Sequence record: NC_073317.1
From: Escherichia phage vB_EcoS_fPoEco01
Strand: one strand, 5' to 3'
Length of the DNA: 44,391 nucleotides
Shown here: piece after piece, positions 1 through 31,127 of the stretch
Layout of the letters: every line of letters begins with the position of its first letter
Numbering within the stretch: the stretch's first letter is position 1
Notes under the pieces: generated by a model
Told to the model about the DNA's origin: nothing
Databases searched by the model: none
The model's input: only the letters and a program-made list of their open reading frames with translations
Program-made: the position numbers and the translations under genes

Positions 1-1251
1 ATGAGTATTCAGCTATCCGCTCCTCAGGCGCTGTTCCTGAACTGCGATAACAAATACAAGGCCTATGTCGGTGGCTTCGGTAGCGGTAAGACGTTTGTTG
101 GCTGTCTGGACCTGCTTACATTCATGCTTAAGCACCCCGGTACGCGCCTTGGTTACTTCGGCCCGACCTACCCGGCTATCCGCGATATCTTCTACCCGAC
201 ATTCGAGGAAGCTGCTAACCTCCTGGGCCTTGATGTGCTGGTTAAATCCGGCGACAAAGAGGTCGTCGTTACGAGAGGTAAGACAGTAATCGGTACAGTA
301 ATCTGCCGTTCGATGGATAACCCAGGCTCTATCGTCGGTTTCAAAATAGCCGCGGCGGTCGTTGATGAACTGGACGTTCTGAGCCGCGAGAAAGCGGAAC
401 TGGCGTGGAACAAAATCGTAGCCCGTATGCGTCTGGTTATCCCTGGAGTGGTAAACCACATCTCCGTTACCACGACACCGGAGGGATTCAAGTTCGTCTA
501 CGCCAAGTTCAAAGAGAACCCGACACCGAGTTACTCAATGGTGCAGGCTTCCACCCACGAGAACGCGCGATTCCTGCCGCCTGACTACATTAGCTCGCTG
601 ACCGAGACTTACCCAGCGCAACTGATTAACGCGTACCTGAATGGGGAGTTCGTTAACCTGACATCCGGCAGCGTCTACTACGCCTACGACCGACGTAAGC
701 ATCGCAGCAAAGAGACAATCCAACCGGGCGACACGCTGTACATCGGGCAGGACTTCAACGTTACGAAGAACGCCAGCGCCGTGTATGTGCAACGTAAAGA
801 CGGCTGGCACGCGGTAGCAGAACTGAAGGGCCTGTTCGATACGCCAGATACCGTGCGTGTGATTACCGAGAAGTGGAAGTCGCAAGGCCACCGCATCGTC
901 GTTTACCCGGACGCCAGCGGCAAGAACCGCAAAACCAACTCGGCGTCAATCTCCGATATCGCCTTACTACAGCAGGCCGGTTTTGATGTTCGCGCTAAAT
1001 CCGCCAACCCACCGGTTAAAGACCGTGTTTTAGCCGTGAATACCGCGCTGGAAAAAGGTAAGCTGTGGGTTAACGACCACTTATGCCCTGAGATAGCGAA
1101 GACGCTGGAGCAGCAGGCATATGATGATAACGGAGAGCCTGCTAAAGACGGCGTCATTGACCATATGGCGGATGCTCTCGGCTATCCTGTAGTTTATGAG
1201 ATGCCGGTGGTTAAACCAGTAATCAACATCCCGGTGACTTTCGCACTTTAA
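1..1251 (+). CDS. terL: terminase large subunit
   Basis: 416 aa; Walker A GGFGSGKT near N-terminus, Walker B-like AAAVVDELD, C-terminal nuclease-like region; followed directly by portal and head genes. Upstream context not visible (window starts at ATG). Confidence 0.85.
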   Translation: MSIQLSAPQALFLNCDNKYKAYVGGFGSGKTFVGCLDLLTFMLKHPGTRLGYFGPTYPAIRDIFYPTFEEAANLLGLDVLVKSGDKEVVVTRGKTVIGTVICRSMDNPGSIVGFKIAAAVVDELDVLSREKAELAWNKIVARMRLVIPGVVNHISVTTTPEGFKFVYAKFKENPTPSYSMVQASTHENARFLPPDYISSLTETYPAQLINAYLNGEFVNLTSGSVYYAYDRRKHRSKETIQPGDTLYIGQDFNVTKNASAVYVQRKDGWHAVAELKGLFDTPDTVRVITEKWKSQGHRIVVYPDASGKNRKTNSASISDIALLQQAGFDVRAKSANPPVKDRVLAVNTALEKGKLWVNDHLCPEIAKTLEQQAYDDNGEPAKDGVIDHMADALGYPVVYEMPVVKPVINIPVTFAL

Positions 1252-1263
1252 GAGGATTATTCA

Positions 1264-2745
1264 ATGTTAACTATGAACGGTCAGAATCAGGGTGTTAAGA
1301 CAAAACACCGGGAATGGCTGCATCACTTCAATAAATGGCAGAAGGTGCGCCACGCGCTGGAAGGCGACCTCATCCGTTACCTGCGCAATGTCGGGAAGAA
1401 CGAGCCTGACCCGACCTATGCGGCACAGCGCCAGGAAGAATACGAGAACGGCGCTATCTGCTACAACTTCACTAAACGTACCCTGGCGGGGATGGTCGGC
1501 AGTGTTATGCGTAAAGACCCTGAGCAGATTATCCCGCCTGAACTTGAGTACCTGTTACGCAACGCTGACGGTTCGGGCGTCGGGCTATGGCAGCACGCGC
1601 AGGATACTTTGATGGAAATTGACTCGGTAGGTCGTGGCGGGTTGCTGGTGGACGCCCCGGAGACAGCTGCGGCAACGGCAGCAGAGCAGAACGCAGGATT
1701 ATTAAACCCGGTCATCGCATTCTACACCGCAGAGAACATCATCAACTGGCGATTGACTCGCGTCGGTTCAGTGAACCGCGTAACGATGGTCGTGCTGCGT
1801 GAGGTATGGGAATACTCTGAACCGGGAGCAGAGTTCGAAACAAAGTTCGGTGAGCAGTACCGTGTTCTCGATTTGATTGACGGGCGCTACCGCCAGCGCA
1901 TTTACCGCTTCGATGCCGAAGGTGGCGCTCAGGGCGACGTAATCGAAATCTTCCCGGAACTCGGCGAACAGTTACGCGGCAAAATCCCGTTCACGTTCAT
2001 CGGGGCAAGCAACAACGATGCGACCATCGACGACGCCCCTTTGCTGCCGTTAGCTGAGCTTAATATCGGGCATTTCCGCAACAGCGCGGACAACGAGGAA
2101 TCCAGCTTCGTTGTAGGCCAGCCTACTCTGTTCATCGCCCCTGGCGAGAACATGAGCATGGAACAGTGGAAAGAAGCCAACCCTCACGGCGTGCGCATGG
2201 GGTCGCGTTCGGGCCATAACATCGGTTACGGTGGCAATGCATTTCTTGTTCAGGCAGGAGAGAACAACCTCGCCAAACAGAATATGCTGGATAAAGAGAA
2301 TCAGGCCATTCAGATTGGTGCGCAGCTTATCACCCCGACGCAGCAAATCACCGCCGAATCCGCCCGCCTGCAACGTGGCGCGGATACGTCTGTTATGGCG
2401 ACAATCGCACGTAACGTAAGTATGGCGTATACCGATGCATTGCGCTGGGTAGCGGCGATGCTAGGGTTGCGTGAAGGCACAGAGATTGAGTTCAAACTTA
2501 ACATGGAGTTCTTCCTGCAACCGATGACCGCTCAGGACCGCGCTCAGTGGATGGCGGACATTAATGCCGGTCTGCTGCCAGCGACCGCTTACTACGCCGC
2601 GTTGCGTAAAGCAGGGGTGACTGACTGGACCGACGAGGATATTCAGAACGCTATTGAGGACGCACCTCTGCCGTTAGGTGCTGTTACTCAGGTGGCAGGA
2701 GAGATTCCGCAGTCGGCGCAGCAACAAGATGTCACTCAGCAGTAA
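1264..2745 (+). CDS. portal protein
   Basis: 493 aa ORF immediately after terL and before Mu-F-like head morphogenesis gene; strong SD AAGAGGA 7 nt upstream of ATG; size and synteny typical of portal. Confidence 0.7.
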   Translation: MLTMNGQNQGVKTKHREWLHHFNKWQKVRHALEGDLIRYLRNVGKNEPDPTYAAQRQEEYENGAICYNFTKRTLAGMVGSVMRKDPEQIIPPELEYLLRNADGSGVGLWQHAQDTLMEIDSVGRGGLLVDAPETAAATAAEQNAGLLNPVIAFYTAENIINWRLTRVGSVNRVTMVVLREVWEYSEPGAEFETKFGEQYRVLDLIDGRYRQRIYRFDAEGGAQGDVIEIFPELGEQLRGKIPFTFIGASNNDATIDDAPLLPLAELNIGHFRNSADNEESSFVVGQPTLFIAPGENMSMEQWKEANPHGVRMGSRSGHNIGYGGNAFLVQAGENNLAKQNMLDKENQAIQIGAQLITPTQQITAESARLQRGADTSVMATIARNVSMAYTDALRWVAAMLGLREGTEIEFKLNMEFFLQPMTAQDRAQWMADINAGLLPATAYYAALRKAGVTDWTDEDIQNAIEDAPLPLGAVTQVAGEIPQSAQQQDVTQQ

Positions 2746-2781
2746 GTTCACATATAGCCCCGAAAGGGGCTTTCTTATAGT

Positions 2782-3858
2782 ATGCTATTAACTTTAGCGC
2801 CACAGGGTTTATCTATGAGCTTACTTACATCTCTAATCAGCCACCAGATATGGCTGCAACGCACTGCATCCGGTGAGGTGAAAGACCTCGCGCCGTTCAT
2901 TAAGGAGATGCGGGACGAAATAAAACGGCAGGTGCTGTTATTCGGTGACGACGGGCGGAGCACTGCGCGACTGAATAAACTGTTACTCGACCTTGAAGAA
3001 GCACTGACGGGGCTTACAGGTGACTGGCAAACAAAGCTGACAGAAGACCTTAAGGAACTGGCCGCATATGAGGCTGAGTGGAACGTAAAAACACTGACCG
3101 CCAACGTTGACGCGGAATTTGTTACGCCTACCGCCGAACAGGTGTGGGCTGCTGCCGAGTTTCAGCCGCTGTCGTTAAGCGACAAGCCCGTCGATTTCAC
3201 TAAGCTGATGGCAGGCTGGGGTGAAACGGAGGCCGCGCGCCTCGTAACCGGCGTTAAGATGGGGTTTGTTCAGGGCCAAACCACACGGCAGATTGTTAAA
3301 AATGTCGTAGGCGCTGGTGGGCTGGCGGACATCTCTGAACGCAACGCGGCTACGGTAATCCGCACCGCGCTGTCTCACGTATCCAACGAAGCCCGCAACG
3401 AGACATACCGCCAGAACGACGACATCATCGAGAAATACGAATGGGTGTCAACGCTGGACAGCCGTACCAGTACGATTTGCAGGGCCAGAGACGGGATGAC
3501 GTGGGAAATCGGTAAAGGTCCGATGCCCCCCGCCCATTTTGGATGTCGAAGTACCACTGCACCGGTAATCAGTTCGGAGTTCGACTTCCTAGATAAAGGT
3601 GCAAAACGCGCGGCTAAGGGTGCGGACGGCGGTATGCAGGTAAGCGCAGACACCACCTATTACGAGTTCCTGAAACAGCAACCGGCATGGTTCGTGGATG
3701 AAGCACTCGGACCTACCCGCGGTGCTATATTCAGGAATAGTGGGATATCCCCAGAGGAATTCCGGGTAATATCCGTCGACGCTTTTGGTAGACCTTTAAC
3801 CTTGAAGGAGATGGCGGCGTTAGATAACAGGGTTGCTGAATATCTTAGGTCGGTATAA
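2782..3858 (+). CDS. head morphogenesis protein (Mu gpF / SPP1 gp7-like)
   Basis: 358 aa; conserved STLDSRTSTICRARDG ... PPAHFGCRST motif typical of Mu F-like minor head proteins; position after portal. Confidence 0.75.
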   Translation: MLLTLAPQGLSMSLLTSLISHQIWLQRTASGEVKDLAPFIKEMRDEIKRQVLLFGDDGRSTARLNKLLLDLEEALTGLTGDWQTKLTEDLKELAAYEAEWNVKTLTANVDAEFVTPTAEQVWAAAEFQPLSLSDKPVDFTKLMAGWGETEAARLVTGVKMGFVQGQTTRQIVKNVVGAGGLADISERNAATVIRTALSHVSNEARNETYRQNDDIIEKYEWVSTLDSRTSTICRARDGMTWEIGKGPMPPAHFGCRSTTAPVISSEFDFLDKGAKRAAKGADGGMQVSADTTYYEFLKQQPAWFVDEALGPTRGAIFRNSGISPEEFRVISVDAFGRPLTLKEMAALDNRVAEYLRSV

Positions 3859-26981: not shown

Positions 26982-27184
26982 AATACACACCCCTCACGTT
27001 TCGTATGTTCAATACCACAGCGCGGGCAGATTCGACAGTCTTCTTCGTAGAACCAGTAAATTTTCATTCCAGCACCCACAGATAAATTGCGATGAACATG
27101 CCTAATACGGCGACAGTCATGCCGTATTGACCCTCGTGACAGTAGATACCGGCGGCAAATCCCGCCAGTACCGCGATAATCAGT

Positions 27185-30100
27185 TTACTTAGCATAGCGC
27201 TTCATCTCCGCACCTTCCGCGACAAGAGGGAAGCCTTCTGCCCACTCAGGCAACGCGCACATTAATTTTTCCAGCTCGGGCACCGTGTAATCCGGCGTAT
27301 CCGGAGTTTCACATACCAGTTCATCGTGTACCGAAAGCACGATTGGATACCCGCCACCCTCAACATTAATCATCGCATATGCGAGTAGATCACGGCACAG
27401 CGCCTGAACAATGTTTTCACAGGCTTTACCGCCGTGGGTGTACAGGGTAGTCCATTGGCGGGTTAACTGGTTTTCACCTTGGTACTTGATTCGCACATTC
27501 GTGTTTACCCGTCCGTCTTCGTCTGTTTCCTTTGTCACGCTAACTCCGATTCCCGGATACGAAAGGATACGGCCCGACGGCAACTCCACGCACAACCACC
27601 AACCAGGAACCTTCCTACCGGATGAATCAAATTCTACTGTTCTCCATATTCGGATAGCGCGCTCGCCATTCCTGCGCAAGTGTGCTCCCGCCCAAAATTC
27701 ACGACCAGGATTACGCACAGCGGCTAAAATTCCGTCTTTAAGGTCGCGCCAGAACGCTACTGTTTCAGGGTGTGACTCACGCCACATACGCTTGATTGCG
27801 TCGCATGTGCGCCACACTTTCTTGTCCAGAATATACGATGGTCGGTCGTCCTTTTCACCAGGATGCGGTGGTCGCTTTGCTTCCTGGATACGCGCCCATT
27901 CATATCCTCTCGCGGTGGCTGACCAGATGTGGTCCGGGAATGTACCGTCCATTGTTTTAGCCATCTCAATAAGGTCGAGGCCTAAGTTTTTGGCGAACGT
28001 AACGAATGCTCCGACGCCTCCCTCGTAGCCGAGGCCCAGTTCGCAGTTATGCGCCACAAGAAAGCCAGAGTCTGAGGCTATAAGAAAACGGTTGCCGTCT
28101 CCCACATCAATCAGGTCGTACACCGGCTCGCAATAGGTTAATTTCCCGTTCAAGTTCAGCAATGCGGGCAACGGCTGCATCATACTTTCGTTGAAGCTCG
28201 GGTATTTGCCGTCTGTTTCGGCAGTTTTCAGAACGGCTGACAAACCGAATGTTTCCAGGTTCGTAGTTACCGTCTGTGTCGATTCTATCCATTTCGAGGT
28301 TCGGGTCATCCCAGCCTTCCAGAGTTTGAACATATCTAAGAAAAGACCTTTTATCAGTCCTCCACTGGTCGAATACCGTGATGCCTCTTGCCCCATAGTT
28401 TTTATAACCCTTATTCCTGGGGCTTGTTGTTCGCGTGATCGCCGCGGACAGCCGGTTGAGTAATCGCGTTCTGTGCACATCATCCGGCATTGCGTCTTCG
28501 TAGCAGAAATACTGTTTACGATATTTTTTTGTTGCTTCAAGGGCGCAGCGGTTGCATTGAGTGGTTTTACCCGCTCTGACATTGTCATAATAGACCCGCC
28601 CCGGCATCTCTCCGCAATCACATTGGACGAGTAGTTGTCTTTGGCCTTGTCGTTTTGGTAACTCGCGCAGGATAACCAGGCGTCCATACCTCTCTCCAGG
28701 GCGAGGCCCATCATATATCTGTTTGAAGCGAGTTGCTTTGCCTGCTTCCAGGAATGCGCCAAGATTTTGTGGTCTTCTGTCATTAGCACCCCGTCCACAT
28801 TTATTACCGGTTTCCACCCCATAAGGTGCGCGCCTTTTGTATTCACCCATTTTTCACCGCTCCATACTTTATCTGTTGATATAACCGCCATAATATCCTT
28901 AAATCCGCCATCGGTCAAAACTTGGGTATGACGGTGAAGGCACGCTTTACCAATCTGGCGCAAGTCTTTACGTTCTTTCTTAATATCGTCTGGGTCCATG
29001 CCGAACATCTTACCCGCGGTTACGCAGTAAATATCAAGGCCAGCACGGAACGTATCGAGTGCGGTTTCCTCCCCGGCCAGCCACGCAAGCCCTCGTCCTT
29101 CAACGTTAGAGTAATCGGCAACAACAAACTTATGCCCCACTTCCGGTATGATGCAGCTACGTACCGTCGATGCCGTTAGCTTGGCTACATCAAAACGGCG
29201 GTGTGCCCGGCCTTTAAGTAACGCTGAAATGCCTTTATCCAGTTCATCATCGTGATAGTACCCGCGCGCCAGGTTCTGTGGTTGGAAGCCTTTACCCGCC
29301 CACCGCAAAGTGCGTTTTGCCCCACCGTACTGTAAACAACCCCGGCGGCGGTCGTCCGATGAGCGGCCCAACAGCAGTGGGTTATATTTCGTTGACGCGG
29401 TGGATGCGGCCCCGAGGCGCATTTCGATAATCGTGCGAGCATCGTCCGGTAAATCATCGTCCGCCAGCAGGTCGTTAAGCGTAGACTTCTGCGCGTTGTG
29501 GATGCGGTGCGCAGGGGCCAGTTCACGAAGAATCGGCAGAAAGTCCTTACCAGTAAGCGAGCCGCCGTATTTGCGTTGGGCTTCCTCCTGTAACTGCGCT
29601 TTGTGTTTCTCCACGGCTTCAATAGCGGCTTCCGCCAGTGCAACGTCAACCTTAAACCCGCGGTCGTTGATTAACTGGTCCAGTTCCAGTACACGGTCTT
29701 CTAACTCAGAGTTACCCCAACGCGGCAGCTTATGGAAGACTTCACGCATTGCAGTGATGTCGCTCACGGCGTACTTGATGAACAGCGCCCACTCGTCCGG
29801 GTGTGTTTCGGCGGTGTAACGGCGGATTTTGTAGTTCTTTGGCGTAGGTTTGGAGAAACGCTTAATCAGCGCCTTGCCGCGTTTATCTTTCGCGTTATCC
29901 GCAGATACGCCCAGCACTTCGCACAATGCATCGAGAGAACCCGGCAGCGCGTGACGAAACGCCCAAATCATCGTATCAATGGTGTTGCTTACAGGAATAT
30001 CAAAGCCCCAGCAGTGTTTCATGATGAGCCTGTCGAACATTGAGCCGTTGTGCCACACCATCTTAATACGACTGTTCGGCTTAACCAGGCGGCGCAGTGC

Positions 30101-30283
30101 GCGGTGCAAATCACCCGGCATGTCGCTGCCGTCGGTGCAATCCCATACCCGCACAGGCTCGTCGTCAAAAGCATATGTGCAGATAAGCACTTCGGTAGTC
30201 GGGTGTTCGGCGTAAGCGTAGGAGCCGACTTTCTTTAAATCTGCTTCGGAGAATGTTTCAAAGTCCAGGTATAAGTAGCTCAT
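27185..30283 (-). CDS. family A DNA polymerase with 3'-5' exonuclease domain, interrupted by an intein in motif B
   Basis: Exo I LDFETFS; motif A VVADYSNVEGRGLAWLAGE; motif B split as RQIGKA / CELGLGYEGGVGAF by the insert; motif C LSVHDELV. ATG 30283 with SD AAGGA preferred over track TTG at 30337. Confidence 0.8.
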   Translation of the reverse strand: MSYLYLDFETFSEADLKKVGSYAYAEHPTTEVLICTYAFDDEPVRVWDCTDGSDMPGDLHRALRRLVKPNSRIKMVWHNGSMFDRLIMKHCWGFDIPVSNTIDTMIWAFRHALPGSLDALCEVLGVSADNAKDKRGKALIKRFSKPTPKNYKIRRYTAETHPDEWALFIKYAVSDITAMREVFHKLPRWGNSELEDRVLELDQLINDRGFKVDVALAEAAIEAVEKHKAQLQEEAQRKYGGSLTGKDFLPILRELAPAHRIHNAQKSTLNDLLADDDLPDDARTIIEMRLGAASTASTKYNPLLLGRSSDDRRRGCLQYGGAKRTLRWAGKGFQPQNLARGYYHDDELDKGISALLKGRAHRRFDVAKLTASTVRSCIIPEVGHKFVVADYSNVEGRGLAWLAGEETALDTFRAGLDIYCVTAGKMFGMDPDDIKKERKDLRQIGKACLHRHTQVLTDGGFKDIMAVISTDKVWSGEKWVNTKGAHLMGWKPVINVDGVLMTEDHKILAHSWKQAKQLASNRYMMGLALERGMDAWLSCASYQNDKAKDNYSSNVIAERCRGGSIMTMSERVKPLNATAAPLKQQKNIVNSISATKTQCRMMCTERDYSTGCPRRSREQQAPGIRVIKTMGQEASRYSTSGGLIKGLFLDMFKLWKAGMTRTSKWIESTQTVTTNLETFGLSAVLKTAETDGKYPSFNESMMQPLPALLNLNGKLTYCEPVYDLIDVGDGNRFLIASDSGFLVAHNCELGLGYEGGVGAFVTFAKNLGLDLIEMAKTMDGTFPDHIWSATARGYEWARIQEAKRPPHPGEKDDRPSYILDKKVWRTCDAIKRMWRESHPETVAFWRDLKDGILAAVRNPGREFWAGAHLRRNGERAIRIWRTVEFDSSGRKVPGWWLCVELPSGRILSYPGIGVSVTKETDEDGRVNTNVRIKYQGENQLTRQWTTLYTHGGKACENIVQALCRDLLAYAMINVEGGGYPIVLSVHDELVCETPDTPDYTVPELEKLMCALPEWAEGFPLVAEGAEMKRYAK
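28046..28942 (-). mobile_element. intein (299 codons) inserted in DNA polymerase motif B
   Basis: Starts with Cys (CLHRHTQVLTDGG...; block B-like GVLMTEDHKIL), ends ...VYDLIDVGDGNRFLIASDSGFLVAHN followed by +1 Cys; removal restores contiguous motif B. Boundaries verified codon by codon against the DNA. Confidence 0.7.
28107..28850 (-). CDS. HNH-like homing endonuclease ORF nested inside the intein in a different reading frame
   Basis: 247 aa ORF offset by 2 nt from the polymerase frame; ATG preceded by GGAG at 9 nt spacing; C-terminal GW...DRIDTDGNYEPGNIRFVSRSENCRN resembles the HNH_3-type core and the two free-standing paralogs. Confidence 0.6.
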   Translation of the reverse strand: MGEYKRRAPYGVETGNKCGRGANDRRPQNLGAFLEAGKATRFKQIYDGPRPGERYGRLVILRELPKRQGQRQLLVQCDCGEMPGRVYYDNVRAGKTTQCNRCALEATKKYRKQYFCYEDAMPDDVHRTRLLNRLSAAITRTTSPRNKGYKNYGARGITVFDQWRTDKRSFLRYVQTLEGWDDPNLEMDRIDTDGNYEPGNIRFVSRSENCRNRRQIPELQRKYDAAVARIAELEREINLLRAGVRPD

Positions 30284-30435
30284 TTCTTTTTCCTTAAATC
30301 CAGTGCCTTCGTTTCGCTGAGTCTTATTTTCATACAATCACGGCAAATCCACACATGCCTGTACCCGGCGCGGTACTCATCCGCGTACCACGGAAGCGGT
30401 TTCATATATCGGTATACGTGCTTACAGAAAAACAT
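30280..30435 (-). CDS. small Cys-rich protein (51 aa, hypothetical)
   Basis: ATG with SD AAGGG; stop overlaps polymerase ATG (ATGA); contains C-x26-C-x2-C plus His; not in track. Confidence 0.3.
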   Translation of the reverse strand: MFFCKHVYRYMKPLPWYADEYRAGYRHVWICRDCMKIRLSETKALDLRKKK

Positions 30436-30450
30436 TATTTTCGACCCTTA

Positions 30451-30474
30451 GTAAAAAGGCCCAATGAAGGGCCT
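30451..30474 (-). terminator. rho-independent terminator (minus strand) after DUF2815-like gene
   Basis: Minus-strand hairpin AGGCCC-ttcatt-GGGCCT followed by TTTTT. Confidence 0.45.
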
Positions 30475-30494
30475 CAGTTAAATTGATTCAGATA

Positions 30495-31127
30495 TTAACG
30501 GCGACGACGTTCGCGGCGAGGTGCTTCATCTTTTTCATCGTCATCGTCTTCCAGGTCATTGACGCTTGCGGCGACTTTAGAACCACCAAACGCTTTACCT
30601 TCGCCAACATATTTAATTGCCAGCAGGTTAACGCCTAGAACTTTATATTTCTGGCTGAACCAGATTTCAACGCTTACATTAGCTACGCAGCCACTGTAAA
30701 CCTGTTCACCTTCAATCTGTTCGCCGTCTACGTTGAAGTCCTGCTCCACCTGAGTCTCACCTTTTTTAGAGGTTACAATCAGCGGCTGCTTCTGCGCCTT
30801 CGCTTTGAAGTAGAAGCCTTCTGGGAAGTCTTCAAACGGGTTATCACGCTCAGCAATGTCTTTAATCGCGCATTTATCCATGTGCTTACCTTCGCCGTAG
30901 TTGGACTTCATCCATTTCTCGGCAGCAGCTGCGCCTAACGCTTCTTCAACTACAGCGTAAACAGTGTCGTAGAGTGCATCGATTTGAGCGTGGTCAGGCG
31001 GCAGGATGATAGTCGCGCTATACTGGCCTTTAGTGATGGAGCCATCATCGTTTTCACGGTCTTTTTCGCGTTCGAATACGTTAACCCATGCAGTGTTTAC
31101 TTTACGCAGATTCAGTTTAATTCCCAT
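30495..31127 (-). CDS. DUF2815-like protein with acidic C-terminal tail (possible SSB-like replication protein)
   Basis: 210 aa; acidic/basic C-terminal tail; adjacent to DUF2800-like nuclease and polymerase as in many phage replication modules. Family call from memory of the pattern, not a search. Confidence 0.4.
   Translation of the reverse strand: MGIKLNLRKVNTAWVNVFEREKDRENDDGSITKGQYSATIILPPDHAQIDALYDTVYAVVEEALGAAAAEKWMKSNYGEGKHMDKCAIKDIAERDNPFEDFPEGFYFKAKAQKQPLIVTSKKGETQVEQDFNVDGEQIEGEQVYSGCVANVSVEIWFSQKYKVLGVNLLAIKYVGEGKAFGGSKVAASVNDLEDDDDEKDEAPRRERRRR

Follow-up and report, generated by a model that had tools for sequence, protein, structure and literature searches.

An Intein in a Phage DNA Polymerase Harbours a Putative Endonuclease Gene in a Different Reading Frame

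Introduction

How can one stretch of phage DNA read as an intein within a polymerase gene and, over most of its length, as an endonuclease gene in another frame? This question is raised by a locus of Escherichia phage vB_EcoS_fPoEco01 (NC_073317.1), of which a stretch of 44,391 nucleotides (nt), in the following called the window, was analyzed. Here, the gene for a family A DNA polymerase is interrupted inside the conserved motif B by an insert of 299 codons, and an open reading frame (ORF) of 247 codons is nested within this insert on the same strand. In textbook inteins, the homing endonuclease is a domain encoded in frame, and the way in which both were first joined is debated ('splicing first' versus co-origin). 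An earlier note on this DNA had described the layout of polymerase ORF, insert and HNH-like ORF, including a GGAG 9 nt before the ATG of the latter, and all of these coordinates proved exact on re-check.

We find that the locus is most probably a two-gene mobile element contained in a single stretch of DNA, consisting of an intein and an endonuclease gene nested in its −1 frame. The anatomy of the locus, frame-specific selection, the conserved layout and start codon, a precise empty site and signatures of recent transfer are shown here and support this explanation.

Results and Discussion

The dual-frame observation is correct and not an artefact. The region was compared by megablast with 50,697 phage records and matched in 236 of them; 161 contain 80% or more of the region, with 90–97% identity. 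Carriers are mostly Salmonella Jerseyvirus and Escherichia Kagunavirus, together with Dhillonvirus (SO-1, Pubbukkers) at ~82%. In 20 of 20 distinct close sequences that were extracted, the intein frame contains no stop, the ends are the same Cys...VAHN/Cys (here and below, a slash marks a junction), the ATG is the same and the nested ORF has 247 codons. With the family alignment, a scan of IMG/VR gave 302 matches; 67 non-Jersey loci were retrieved, in which the nested protein is 41–71% identical. At all 67 loci the homologue is nested in an ORF of 600–1280 codons, and the host frame is always +1 relative to the homologue. The statement of the earlier note that both frames are open holds for all of these close relatives and divergent viral contigs alike.

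An open intein frame is not expected by chance. When the synonymous codons of the 247-residue protein were resampled with phage codon usage, 4.3 intein-frame stops arose on average, and only 0.4% of the trials gave none (0.025% with uniform codons). The third frame contains 26 stops.

Selection was followed along the element by counting variable sites at positions 1/2/3 of the polymerase-frame codons in 19 aligned sequences. In the exteins, position 3 is highest (31/18/92 and 65/58/87), and the same peak is found in the first 92 nt (6/2/15) and the last 61 nt (1/1/11) of the intein. Between intein nt 242 and 692 the peak moves to position 2 (6/26/10, 6/29/11, 8/24/14), where the codons of the nested ORF have their wobble base. 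In the overlap of nt 92–242, in which the first 50 nested codons lie on the N-terminal splicing domain, variable sites are few and evenly spread (8/12/9). The ratio of nonsynonymous to synonymous substitutions (dN/dS), determined by the Nei–Gojobori method (NG86), gives the same picture: in the core (nt 243–693) it is 0.11–0.12 for the nested frame and an apparent 0.6–1.4 for the intein frame, and in the intein-only ends the intein frame shows values of 0.0–0.26 (nt 0–90) and 0.0–0.31 (nt 837–897). The middle of the intein polypeptide is free to change so long as no stop arises. Both suggestions of the earlier note on this part are borne out: that the middle of the intein frame is kept open only for read-through agrees with its dN/dS, the position-2 peak and the predicted disorder, and the existence of a separate out-of-frame gene agrees with the low nested-frame dN/dS, the conserved start codon and a protein family match (2.5e-47, see below).

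Judged by sequence and structure models, the insert is a class-1 intein. Across seven lineages with 27–71% identity, C1, T55, D57 and H58 (the TxxH of block B), H298-N299 and the +1 Cys show no variation. A profile built from the two terminal parts of the intein matches the split polymerase intein NEQ068 of Nanoarchaeum (9e-5), the PI-MtuI/Mtu RecA mini-inteins (0.006–0.04) and, over the full length, the Spirulina (Spl) DnaX mini-intein (0.014). In the AlphaFold model of the 299 residues, confident beta structure is predicted at positions 1–60, with a pLDDT score (predicted local distance difference test) of 80–94, and at ~255–299 (~80–86), with values below 50 for residues 63–254. The top 28 Foldseek neighbors of this model are nearly all inteins (gp41-1, MchDnaB, DnaX, RecA), gp41-1 having a probability of 0.99. 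Profile, AlphaFold and Foldseek results thereby point alike to a Hint fold formed by the N- and C-terminal segments.

Protein searches with the intein-frame peptide gave five matches and those with the mini-intein profile 26, mostly fragments; owing to the few matches of the peptide, the alignment behind the intein model is shallow. Scans of the intein-frame translation with Pfam and NCBIfam returned nothing useful, and its match to phrog_93 (3e-195) is due only to fragments annotated in the same phages.

The empty site is precise. The polymerases of EcoPhCCP1 and fFiEco03 read RQIGKA/CELGLGYEGG, with exactly 299 codons absent, and since these intein-less polymerases are gapless at this point, motif B is not naturally long. 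The boundaries proposed in the earlier note are confirmed by this comparison, and its reading of the insert as a canonical intein is in agreement with Cys1, TxxH, HN/Cys, the profile matches, the empty site and the predicted structure, where the confident beta ends and the intein neighbors answer the structure-prediction check that it had named for the 299-residue peptide. The position of the endonuclease differs from that of a canonical intein, in which it lies in frame within the intein polypeptide; here it is in the −1 frame. With 299 residues and an unstructured linker of ~190 residues, the insert is also no mini-intein (~130–200 residues with a short linker). Protein splicing of the polymerase precursor is indirectly implied, since the polymerase is essential and the insert is carried in 161 sequenced phage records.

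The features of the locus are collected in Table 1. The nested ORF lies in the +2 (= −1) frame because it begins 92 nt into the intein; its first ~50 codons overlap the N-terminal splicing codons and its last ~25 overlap block F. By alignment, the N-terminal splicing region reaches ~residue 90. The true start of the polymerase is probably the ATG at 30283 (MSYLYLDFETF) instead of the TTG at 30337, as this fits the 1032-residue polymerase annotated in relatives (Ent1 coding sequence (CDS), 3099 nt). A run of seven A in the dual-coding core (CAACAAAAAAATAT, 28525..28535) is a potential slippage site for polymerases or ribosomes.

Table 1. Features of the polymerase locus in the window.
Feature	Position	Strand	Details
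Family A DNA polymerase precursor ORF	27185..30337	minus	1050 codons from TTG; Pfam DNA_pol_A (2.7e-15) and 3'-5' exonuclease
Insert, assigned to the class-1 inteins	28046..28942	minus	299 codons, Cys1 (TGC) to ...FLVAHN; in motif B, between RQIGKA and CELGLGYEGG
N-terminal splicing region of the intein, residues 1–62	28757..28942	minus	block A CLHRHTQVLTDGG, WSGEKWV motif, block B TEDH; predicted beta-rich, pLDDT 80–94
Intein-frame linker, residues 63–254	28181..28756	minus	stop-free, no amino-acid constraint, predicted disordered
C-terminal splicing region of the intein, residues 255–299	28046..28180	minus	block F VYDLIDV, block G VAHN
+1 Cys codon of the C-extein, splice-junction nucleophile	28043..28045	minus	present in intein-less alleles too
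Nested endonuclease gene (putative)	28107..28850	minus	ATG, 247 codons, TGA; −1 (= +2) frame
Start ATG of the nested gene	28848..28850	minus	last base of a Lys codon plus TG of a conserved intein Trp (aaA TGg)
Shine–Dalgarno-like GGAG	28860..28863	minus	9 nt ahead of the ATG; built from the Trp-Ser codons of the intein WSG motif
Sigma-70-like promoter candidate in the intein block A codons	28890..28918	minus	−35 TTGACC 28918..28913 (Val-Leu-Thr codons), 17-nt spacer, −10 TATTAT 28895..28890; 10/12 match
Beta/zinc-ribbon domain of the nested protein, N-terminal, residues 50–103	28542..28703	minus	invariant C77, C79, C99, C102
Putative beta-beta-alpha-metal nuclease core of the nested protein, residues 185–212	28215..28298	minus	EMDRIDTDGNYEPGNIRFVSRSENCRN; invariant D188, R189, Y196, N200, N209, N212

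The protein encoded by the nested gene matches PHROG families annotated as HNH endonuclease, best phrog_374 (2.5e-47) followed by phrog_3377 and phrog_2081 (both ~1e-21), and weakly the 'endonuclease VII' family phrog_1035 (2.3e-5). No Pfam HNH model was matched, and Pfam and NCBIfam scans were otherwise unhelpful. At least 303 relatives were found by database search, mostly of 236–250 residues and 43–57% identical. In an alignment of 68 members, the four zinc-ribbon cysteines and the six core residues listed in Table 1 are invariant, as are H126, R127, Y152, G153, R155 and G156; the zinc-ribbon region passes the threshold of the Pfam CapR homology domain in some relatives. The AlphaFold model of the 247 residues, likewise named as a check in the earlier note, is well ordered (pLDDT 83.7), with residues 1–24 disordered, order from ~residue 50, a strand-loop-strand-helix unit at 185–211 and a subsequent long C-terminal helix. 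A Foldseek search of this model against the PDB gave nothing significant, and PDB sequence searches with the protein alone or with the 68-member profile found zinc-ribbon look-alikes only.

The general-base His expected at the end of strand 1 is absent. Its position is taken by the invariant Arg of D188-R189 in all 68 members, the loop contains the invariant Tyr196, and the Asn residues of the core helix that are candidates for metal binding (N200, N209, N212) are all invariant. PacI is a known His-Me finger enzyme without this His, which uses a loop Tyr (PMC5714182). Tentatively, the nested protein can be assigned as a PacI-like variant in the His-Me finger (HNH) superfamily. Of the designation 'HNH-like' in the earlier note, the relationship to HNH families stands, while the catalytic His and a Pfam HNH match are missing.

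Comparison between phages shows signatures of transfer. The intein is 0.92–0.99 identical in sequences whose flanks share 0.85–0.92; for SO-1 the values are 0.83 for the intein and 0.66–0.69 for the flanks. The intein-less polymerase of Kagunavirus fFiEco03 (L121) is ~100% identical to the window exteins in most blocks of 100 nt. Immediately upstream of the insertion site its identity falls to 0.81–0.86 over ~200 nt, and immediately downstream it is 100%. Since near-identical polymerases differ only beside the insertion site, this pattern indicates recent homing, of which it is the expected outcome if the upstream flank is co-converted. Intein-bearing alleles mostly share the flank KKERKDLRQIGKA, and empty alleles have KKNFKEIRQIGKA; FSL SP-101 contains the intein together with an empty-type flank.

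In a comparison of 28943..29150 with the empty alleles of fFiEco03 and EcoPhCCP1, many differences are concentrated in the ~35 nt just upstream of the insertion, with KKERKDL in place of KKNFKEI and synonymous changes in RQIGKA. This divergent stretch could mark the recognition or cleavage region of the endonuclease, or resistance to it. Contigs with the nested gene (L030, L031, L032 and many of the P00xx series) are often only 0.9–1.1 kb long, approximately the size of the element, and look like assembly-graph bubbles arising from presence/absence polymorphism in natural phage populations. The polymerase neighborhood of related phages is rich in free-standing HNH genes; I-HmuI-like HNH homing-endonuclease genes are located just downstream of the polymerase in fFiEco03 (gp36, L121 3517..3746) and SO-1 (gp37, L002 3442..4044).

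The nested protein might be made without being a homing enzyme, acting as a nuclease in phage–phage competition or replication, or only binding DNA. The His-less active site casts doubt on cleavage, and these phages hold several free-standing HNH genes. PacI demonstrates, however, that a His-Me finger without the His can cut DNA, the clade above 41% identity is found only within inteins at polymerase motif B, and the nested gene travels with the intein across diverged polymerases. We consider a function other than homing improbable.

A decaying relic within an intein that is inherited only vertically, from which no endonuclease is made, is more improbable still. It would account for the missing catalytic His and for the relative L018, in which the nested ORF is truncated to 170 codons and the intein frame still open. 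Against this, the low dN/dS of the nested frame and 28 invariant residues speak for a maintained protein, the ORF is full length in 20 of 20 close sequences and in nearly all divergent lineages examined, its start codon is held against codon bias, and both the higher conservation of the intein compared to its flanks and the signature of fresh acquisition relative to fFiEco03 point to more than vertical inheritance.

The start codon deserves closer attention. At the nested start position, 58 of 59 distinct sequences have a start codon, namely ATG (45), GTG (12) or TTG (1), and the frame is open into the core in 58. The start arises where the codon ahead of a conserved Trp (W-D/S/N-G-x-x-W-V) supplies its last base and the Trp codon its TG. 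Four-fold degenerate codons (Ser, Ala, Thr) precede this Trp in 15 cases, and 14 of them end in A, compared to a background of 11–16% in the same polymerases. In most lineages an A likewise closes the codon ahead of the motif's first Trp, resulting in a second in-frame ATG; in other lineages the Trp-Asp-Gly codons TGG GAY GG give the Shine–Dalgarno-like GGGAYGG at −13 to −7. In the window, TGA shuts the nested (−1) frame two codons upstream of the ATG. Based on the conserved start, the Shine–Dalgarno-like sequence and this upstream TGA, independent initiation of the nested gene appears as the simplest reading of the sequence, and frameshifting as unlikely.

Programmed −1 frameshifting would yield a fusion of N-extein, N-terminal intein part and endonuclease, with no start of the nested gene's own. 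The nested frame is indeed the −1 frame of the polymerase at 67 of 67 loci, and the seven-A run at ~28530 is at hand. The TGA would close this frame before the ATG is reached, though, start codon and Shine–Dalgarno-like sequence keep a fixed position, no structure is seen in the RNA there, and L019 holds a homologue in the +1 frame instead. The probability left for frameshifting, for which no systematic search for conserved slippery heptamers or stimulatory RNA structures downstream was made, is small, slightly below that of a relic.

A promoter scan revealed TTGACC-17-TATTAT ~40 nt upstream of the nested ATG. At the same position, 37 of 60 distinct divergent sequences have at least 9 of 12 matches to the promoter consensus. 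The site consists of codons for Val-Leu-Thr in block A together with a triplet for Ala-Ile-Val (or Asp-Ile-Met); here, Leu is encoded by TTG in 68% (background 13%), Ala by GCT in 93% (background 15%) and Ile by ATA in 52% (background 12%); as internal control, the third base of Thr10 (the N of TTGACN) agrees with the background. Synonymous resampling gave z = 13 for the promoter, but a position scan gave z > 6 at many unrelated positions. As the z-scores are inflated at many positions by shared ancestry and composition, they are untrustworthy, and the promoter was judged on absolute score, codon counts and the Thr10 control only. These are suggestive of a sigma-70-like promoter candidate embedded in the intein codons.

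An RNA-level explanation is given in the record of Sodalis phage SO-1, whose GenBank note reads 'type I self-splicing intron': the insert would be a group I intron with an HNH gene, and the open polymerase frame incidental. Phage family A polymerase genes are known hosts of such introns (PMC3428280). No RNA family of Rfam matched at E ≤ 1 over 27000..30500, however. Further, in every relative the polymerase frame stays open along the insert, for which the chance is 0.4% per sequence, the insert ends evolve as polymerase-frame codons (dN/dS 0.0–0.3), and these ends carry the invariant Cys1, TxxH and HN/Cys and resemble solved inteins. Hardly any probability remains for an intron.

The SO-1 label 'type I self-splicing intron' is unsupported, as no Rfam hit was obtained here.

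An ordinary intein with in-frame HNH domain, offset merely by two compensating sequencing errors or assembly indels, has equally negligible probability and is already refuted by the comparative data: two frame-changing single-base insertions do occur in the record of Salmonella phage SS3e, but frames and boundaries recur unchanged in the 20 close sequences, in 161 records, which stem from many laboratories and platforms, and in the 67 divergent metagenomic contigs, nested start and stop are conserved, and selection tracks both frames as annotated. The paired frameshift errors considered in the earlier note are ruled out by this comparison. SS3e (L001/L016) is the lone deviant. Its insertions at intein nt 33 and 305 divide the polymerase into three annotated CDS and create an in-frame fusion of the N-terminal intein part with the endonuclease. 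The record is an old one, and the insertions are probably errors of sequencing. SS3e illustrates how one indel could give an in-frame fusion of intein and endonuclease.

Some points weigh against the interpretation as a mobile element of intein and independently expressed endonuclease. The Foldseek E-values of the intein model are only ~0.07, which is due to the fact that only its N-terminal part aligns. Conserved amino acids alone already yield 6.7 of the 12 promoter matches, the z-scores are inflated, and a clade with VLC[DE]SGW has no promoter-like sequence. The region of the nested start has no special RNA structure; ribosome-binding sites hidden in RNA hairpins are reported for some free-standing endonuclease genes, and such a hairpin was not found at the nested start (z = −0.08). 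Finally, splicing, internal initiation, nuclease activity and its target, homing and promoter use are steps that we infer from sequence.

Taken as a two-gene element, the locus would work as follows. Ribosomes that translate the polymerase would read through all 299 intein codons. The N-terminal (~60–90 residues) and C-terminal (~45 residues) segments would fold to the Hint domain, with the ~190 residues in between as a disordered tether, and protein splicing would rejoin RQIGKA to CELGLGY to give the active polymerase. The DNA of the tether would at the same time be the coding sequence of a separate endonuclease of 247 residues in the −1 frame, translated from its own ATG with a Shine–Dalgarno-like sequence supplied by Trp-Ser/Asp-Gly codons and possibly transcribed from the sigma-70-like promoter in block A. 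In this protein, a CapR-like zinc-ribbon domain would be joined to a His-Me finger core like that of PacI (D-R...Y...N...N) and to a coiled coil at the C-terminus. In co-infections, the protein may cleave the polymerase alleles of phages that have no intein, close to motif B; the intein-bearing allele would then serve as the template for repair, by which the complete element is copied in (homing). Selection would keep the polymerase frame stop-free across the endonuclease gene, with the endonuclease sequence itself under purifying selection.

Distant relatives show how far this arrangement extends. The host ORF is a family A polymerase in contigs L017, L018, L019, L028 and L029, and the junctions of 65 further loci fit motif B. 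The inteins start with Cys and, where the boundaries could be parsed cleanly, end with HN/Cys. Three adjacent insertion points after the motif-B Lys are used, K-x/C (as in the window), K-x-x/C and, most often, GKVxELA/CG(F/Y). The same nesting inside polymerase inteins was found in the unrelated contigs L017, L028, L029 and L030–L032 (45–73% identity). In free-standing relatives at ~30% identity, both alternative frames are full of stops.

Several variant layouts were observed besides. The polymerase of L019 (826..3756) has a motif-B intein (ELA/C...VHN/CGYGG) in which a nested homologue of 34% identity (2267..3154) occupies the +1 frame; this suggests an independent invasion or a frame change by indels. 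In the polymerase of L018 (82..3779; IMGVR_UViG_3300045921_000040), the motif-B intein with the truncated nested ORF is preceded by a second, split intein. Here ORF 82..1404 ends in an N-intein half (CLVDDTQVTVYD...), the ORF beginning at 1962 opens with a C-intein half (MLVPVYDIRNCGPRRRFVANGKLVHN/S), and a free HNH-type ORF (1256..2026) overlaps both neighbors. By its sequence organization, this upstream site is a 'fractured gene' with an HNH-type endonuclease gene. P0134 has the same C-intein half. Mini-intein relatives without a nested gene are P0142, located at the polymerase GK...​/CGYGG site, P0145 at another polymerase site, and P0126 and P0127, which have 200 residues and are not obviously polymerases.

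The forms observed are bare mini-inteins, genes nested in the −1 frame (hundreds of loci), one gene in the +1 frame, one shortened nested ORF and a split intein with the endonuclease gene between its halves. It is possible, if in our estimate a little less probable than its opposite, that the polymerase motif-B inteins form one old family that keeps these forms side by side, and with them nearly every step of endonuclease gain and loss, in which the nested cassette of promoter, ribosome-binding site and start is overprinted on splicing codons as a stable symbiosis of two selfish genes and not as a transient intermediate. If this is true, the endonuclease could be expressed separately from the polymerase.

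In existing annotation, the intein is noted in several records (Ent1, Ent2, BPS11Q3 and others), in Ent1 only as 'encoding splicing domains', and the nested CDS is labelled as HNH endonuclease in two (SS3e, SO-1). The relationship of the frames is unstated in the annotated records examined. No paper on an out-of-frame gene in the Jersey-type polymerase intein was found in a literature search that left subscription journals mostly outside.

The closest parallel is described in a 2025 preprint of Gosselin, Arsenault and Gogarten on actinophage inteins with an endonuclease VII-like gene in 'frame 3', besides antisense LAGLIDADG or Vsr-like genes; the out-of-frame case was termed previously unreported there. 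As in the window, these inteins are contiguous, with the endonuclease on the same strand in 'frame 3' (+2), an open intein frame and a middle part of the intein frame without recognizable structure, and a free-standing endonuclease gene invading an intein is the proposed origin. The window shares the features of this class: a complete ORF on the same strand, in another frame, and an open intein frame. It differs in the hosts, which are phages of Enterobacteria and many uncultured phages instead of actinophages, in the extein, here motif B of a family A polymerase, and in the enzyme, which has 247 residues, among them a zinc ribbon and, at 185–212, a D-R...Y...N core resembling that of PacI, compared to an EndoVII-like core at 1–67; the weak phrog_1035 match is the only link found between both. 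Here, moreover, the first ~50 nested codons, the start and the Shine–Dalgarno-like sequence (and the promoter, if real) lie in codons of the splicing domain, and the depth and breadth of conservation also differ. An out-of-frame endonuclease in an intein is therefore of a kind already reported in that preprint, and the case in polymerase motif B is newly described here. The 'unusual composite element' of the earlier note holds in so far as it departs from canonical in-frame inteins, but it is widespread and its kind has been reported.

Split inteins whose halves are separated by a free-standing endonuclease gene were described by Dassa et al. 2009 (PMC2677866), who also predicted an HNH version. 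Like the window, these fractured genes combine an endonuclease gene with its own expression signals inside an intein, coding overlap and a location in phage replication genes; unlike there, the host ORF in the window is continuous, the intein frame reads through and splicing would occur in cis. The enzymes reported by Dassa et al. were GIY-YIG and Vsr-like, not of the HNH type. L018 has exactly the fractured layout at another polymerase site, with the HNH-type enzyme that was predicted but not observed in that study. The ShiLan domain (Arsenault et al. 2025, PMC11855218) is similar as an HNH-type gene in another frame of a host-open insertion, in a phage DNA methylase, with evidence of active homing. 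It has no splicing domains, its insert is thought to remain as a protein loop and no ribosome-binding site was found, whereas the window has complete intein flanks and a Shine–Dalgarno-like sequence.

With canonical inteins (HNH or LAGLIDADG), the window has in common the Hint domain, Cys1, TxxH, HN/Cys, insertion in an active-site motif and a homing-type distribution; in contrast to them, its endonuclease is outside the intein polypeptide, and the intein-frame translation is unconstrained and disordered. PacI (PDB 3m7k/3ldy; His-Me finger group 20) has no detectable sequence similarity and only a weak structural match to the nested protein, and it is a restriction enzyme and not a mobile-element gene. 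Group I introns such as that with I-PfoP3I of Pf-WMP3 (PMC3428280) use the same gene family and carry an HNH-type endonuclease in the intervening sequence. They are removed at the RNA level, unlike the insert of the window, which is translated and in which no intron RNA was detected.

Conclusion

The locus has practical consequences for annotation as well as for experiments. Annotation pipelines miss or mislabel the nested gene, as 'hypothetical', as 'type I intron', or with the polymerase divided into three CDS. Coliphages and Salmonella phages, which are easy to grow, are the hosts, and fFiEco03 represents a nearly isogenic intein-less partner, so that splicing, internal initiation and homing are open to testing.

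The element is a clean natural case of dual coding, in which one frame is under stop avoidance only and the other under selection for protein sequence. It also shows a proposed intermediate in the joining of inteins and endonucleases, i.e. a free-standing endonuclease gene inside a presumably splicing-competent intein but outside its protein. This layout is no rare accident, as it persists at protein identities as low as 41% and occurs in 161 phage records and at least 67 distinct contigs of uncultured viruses.

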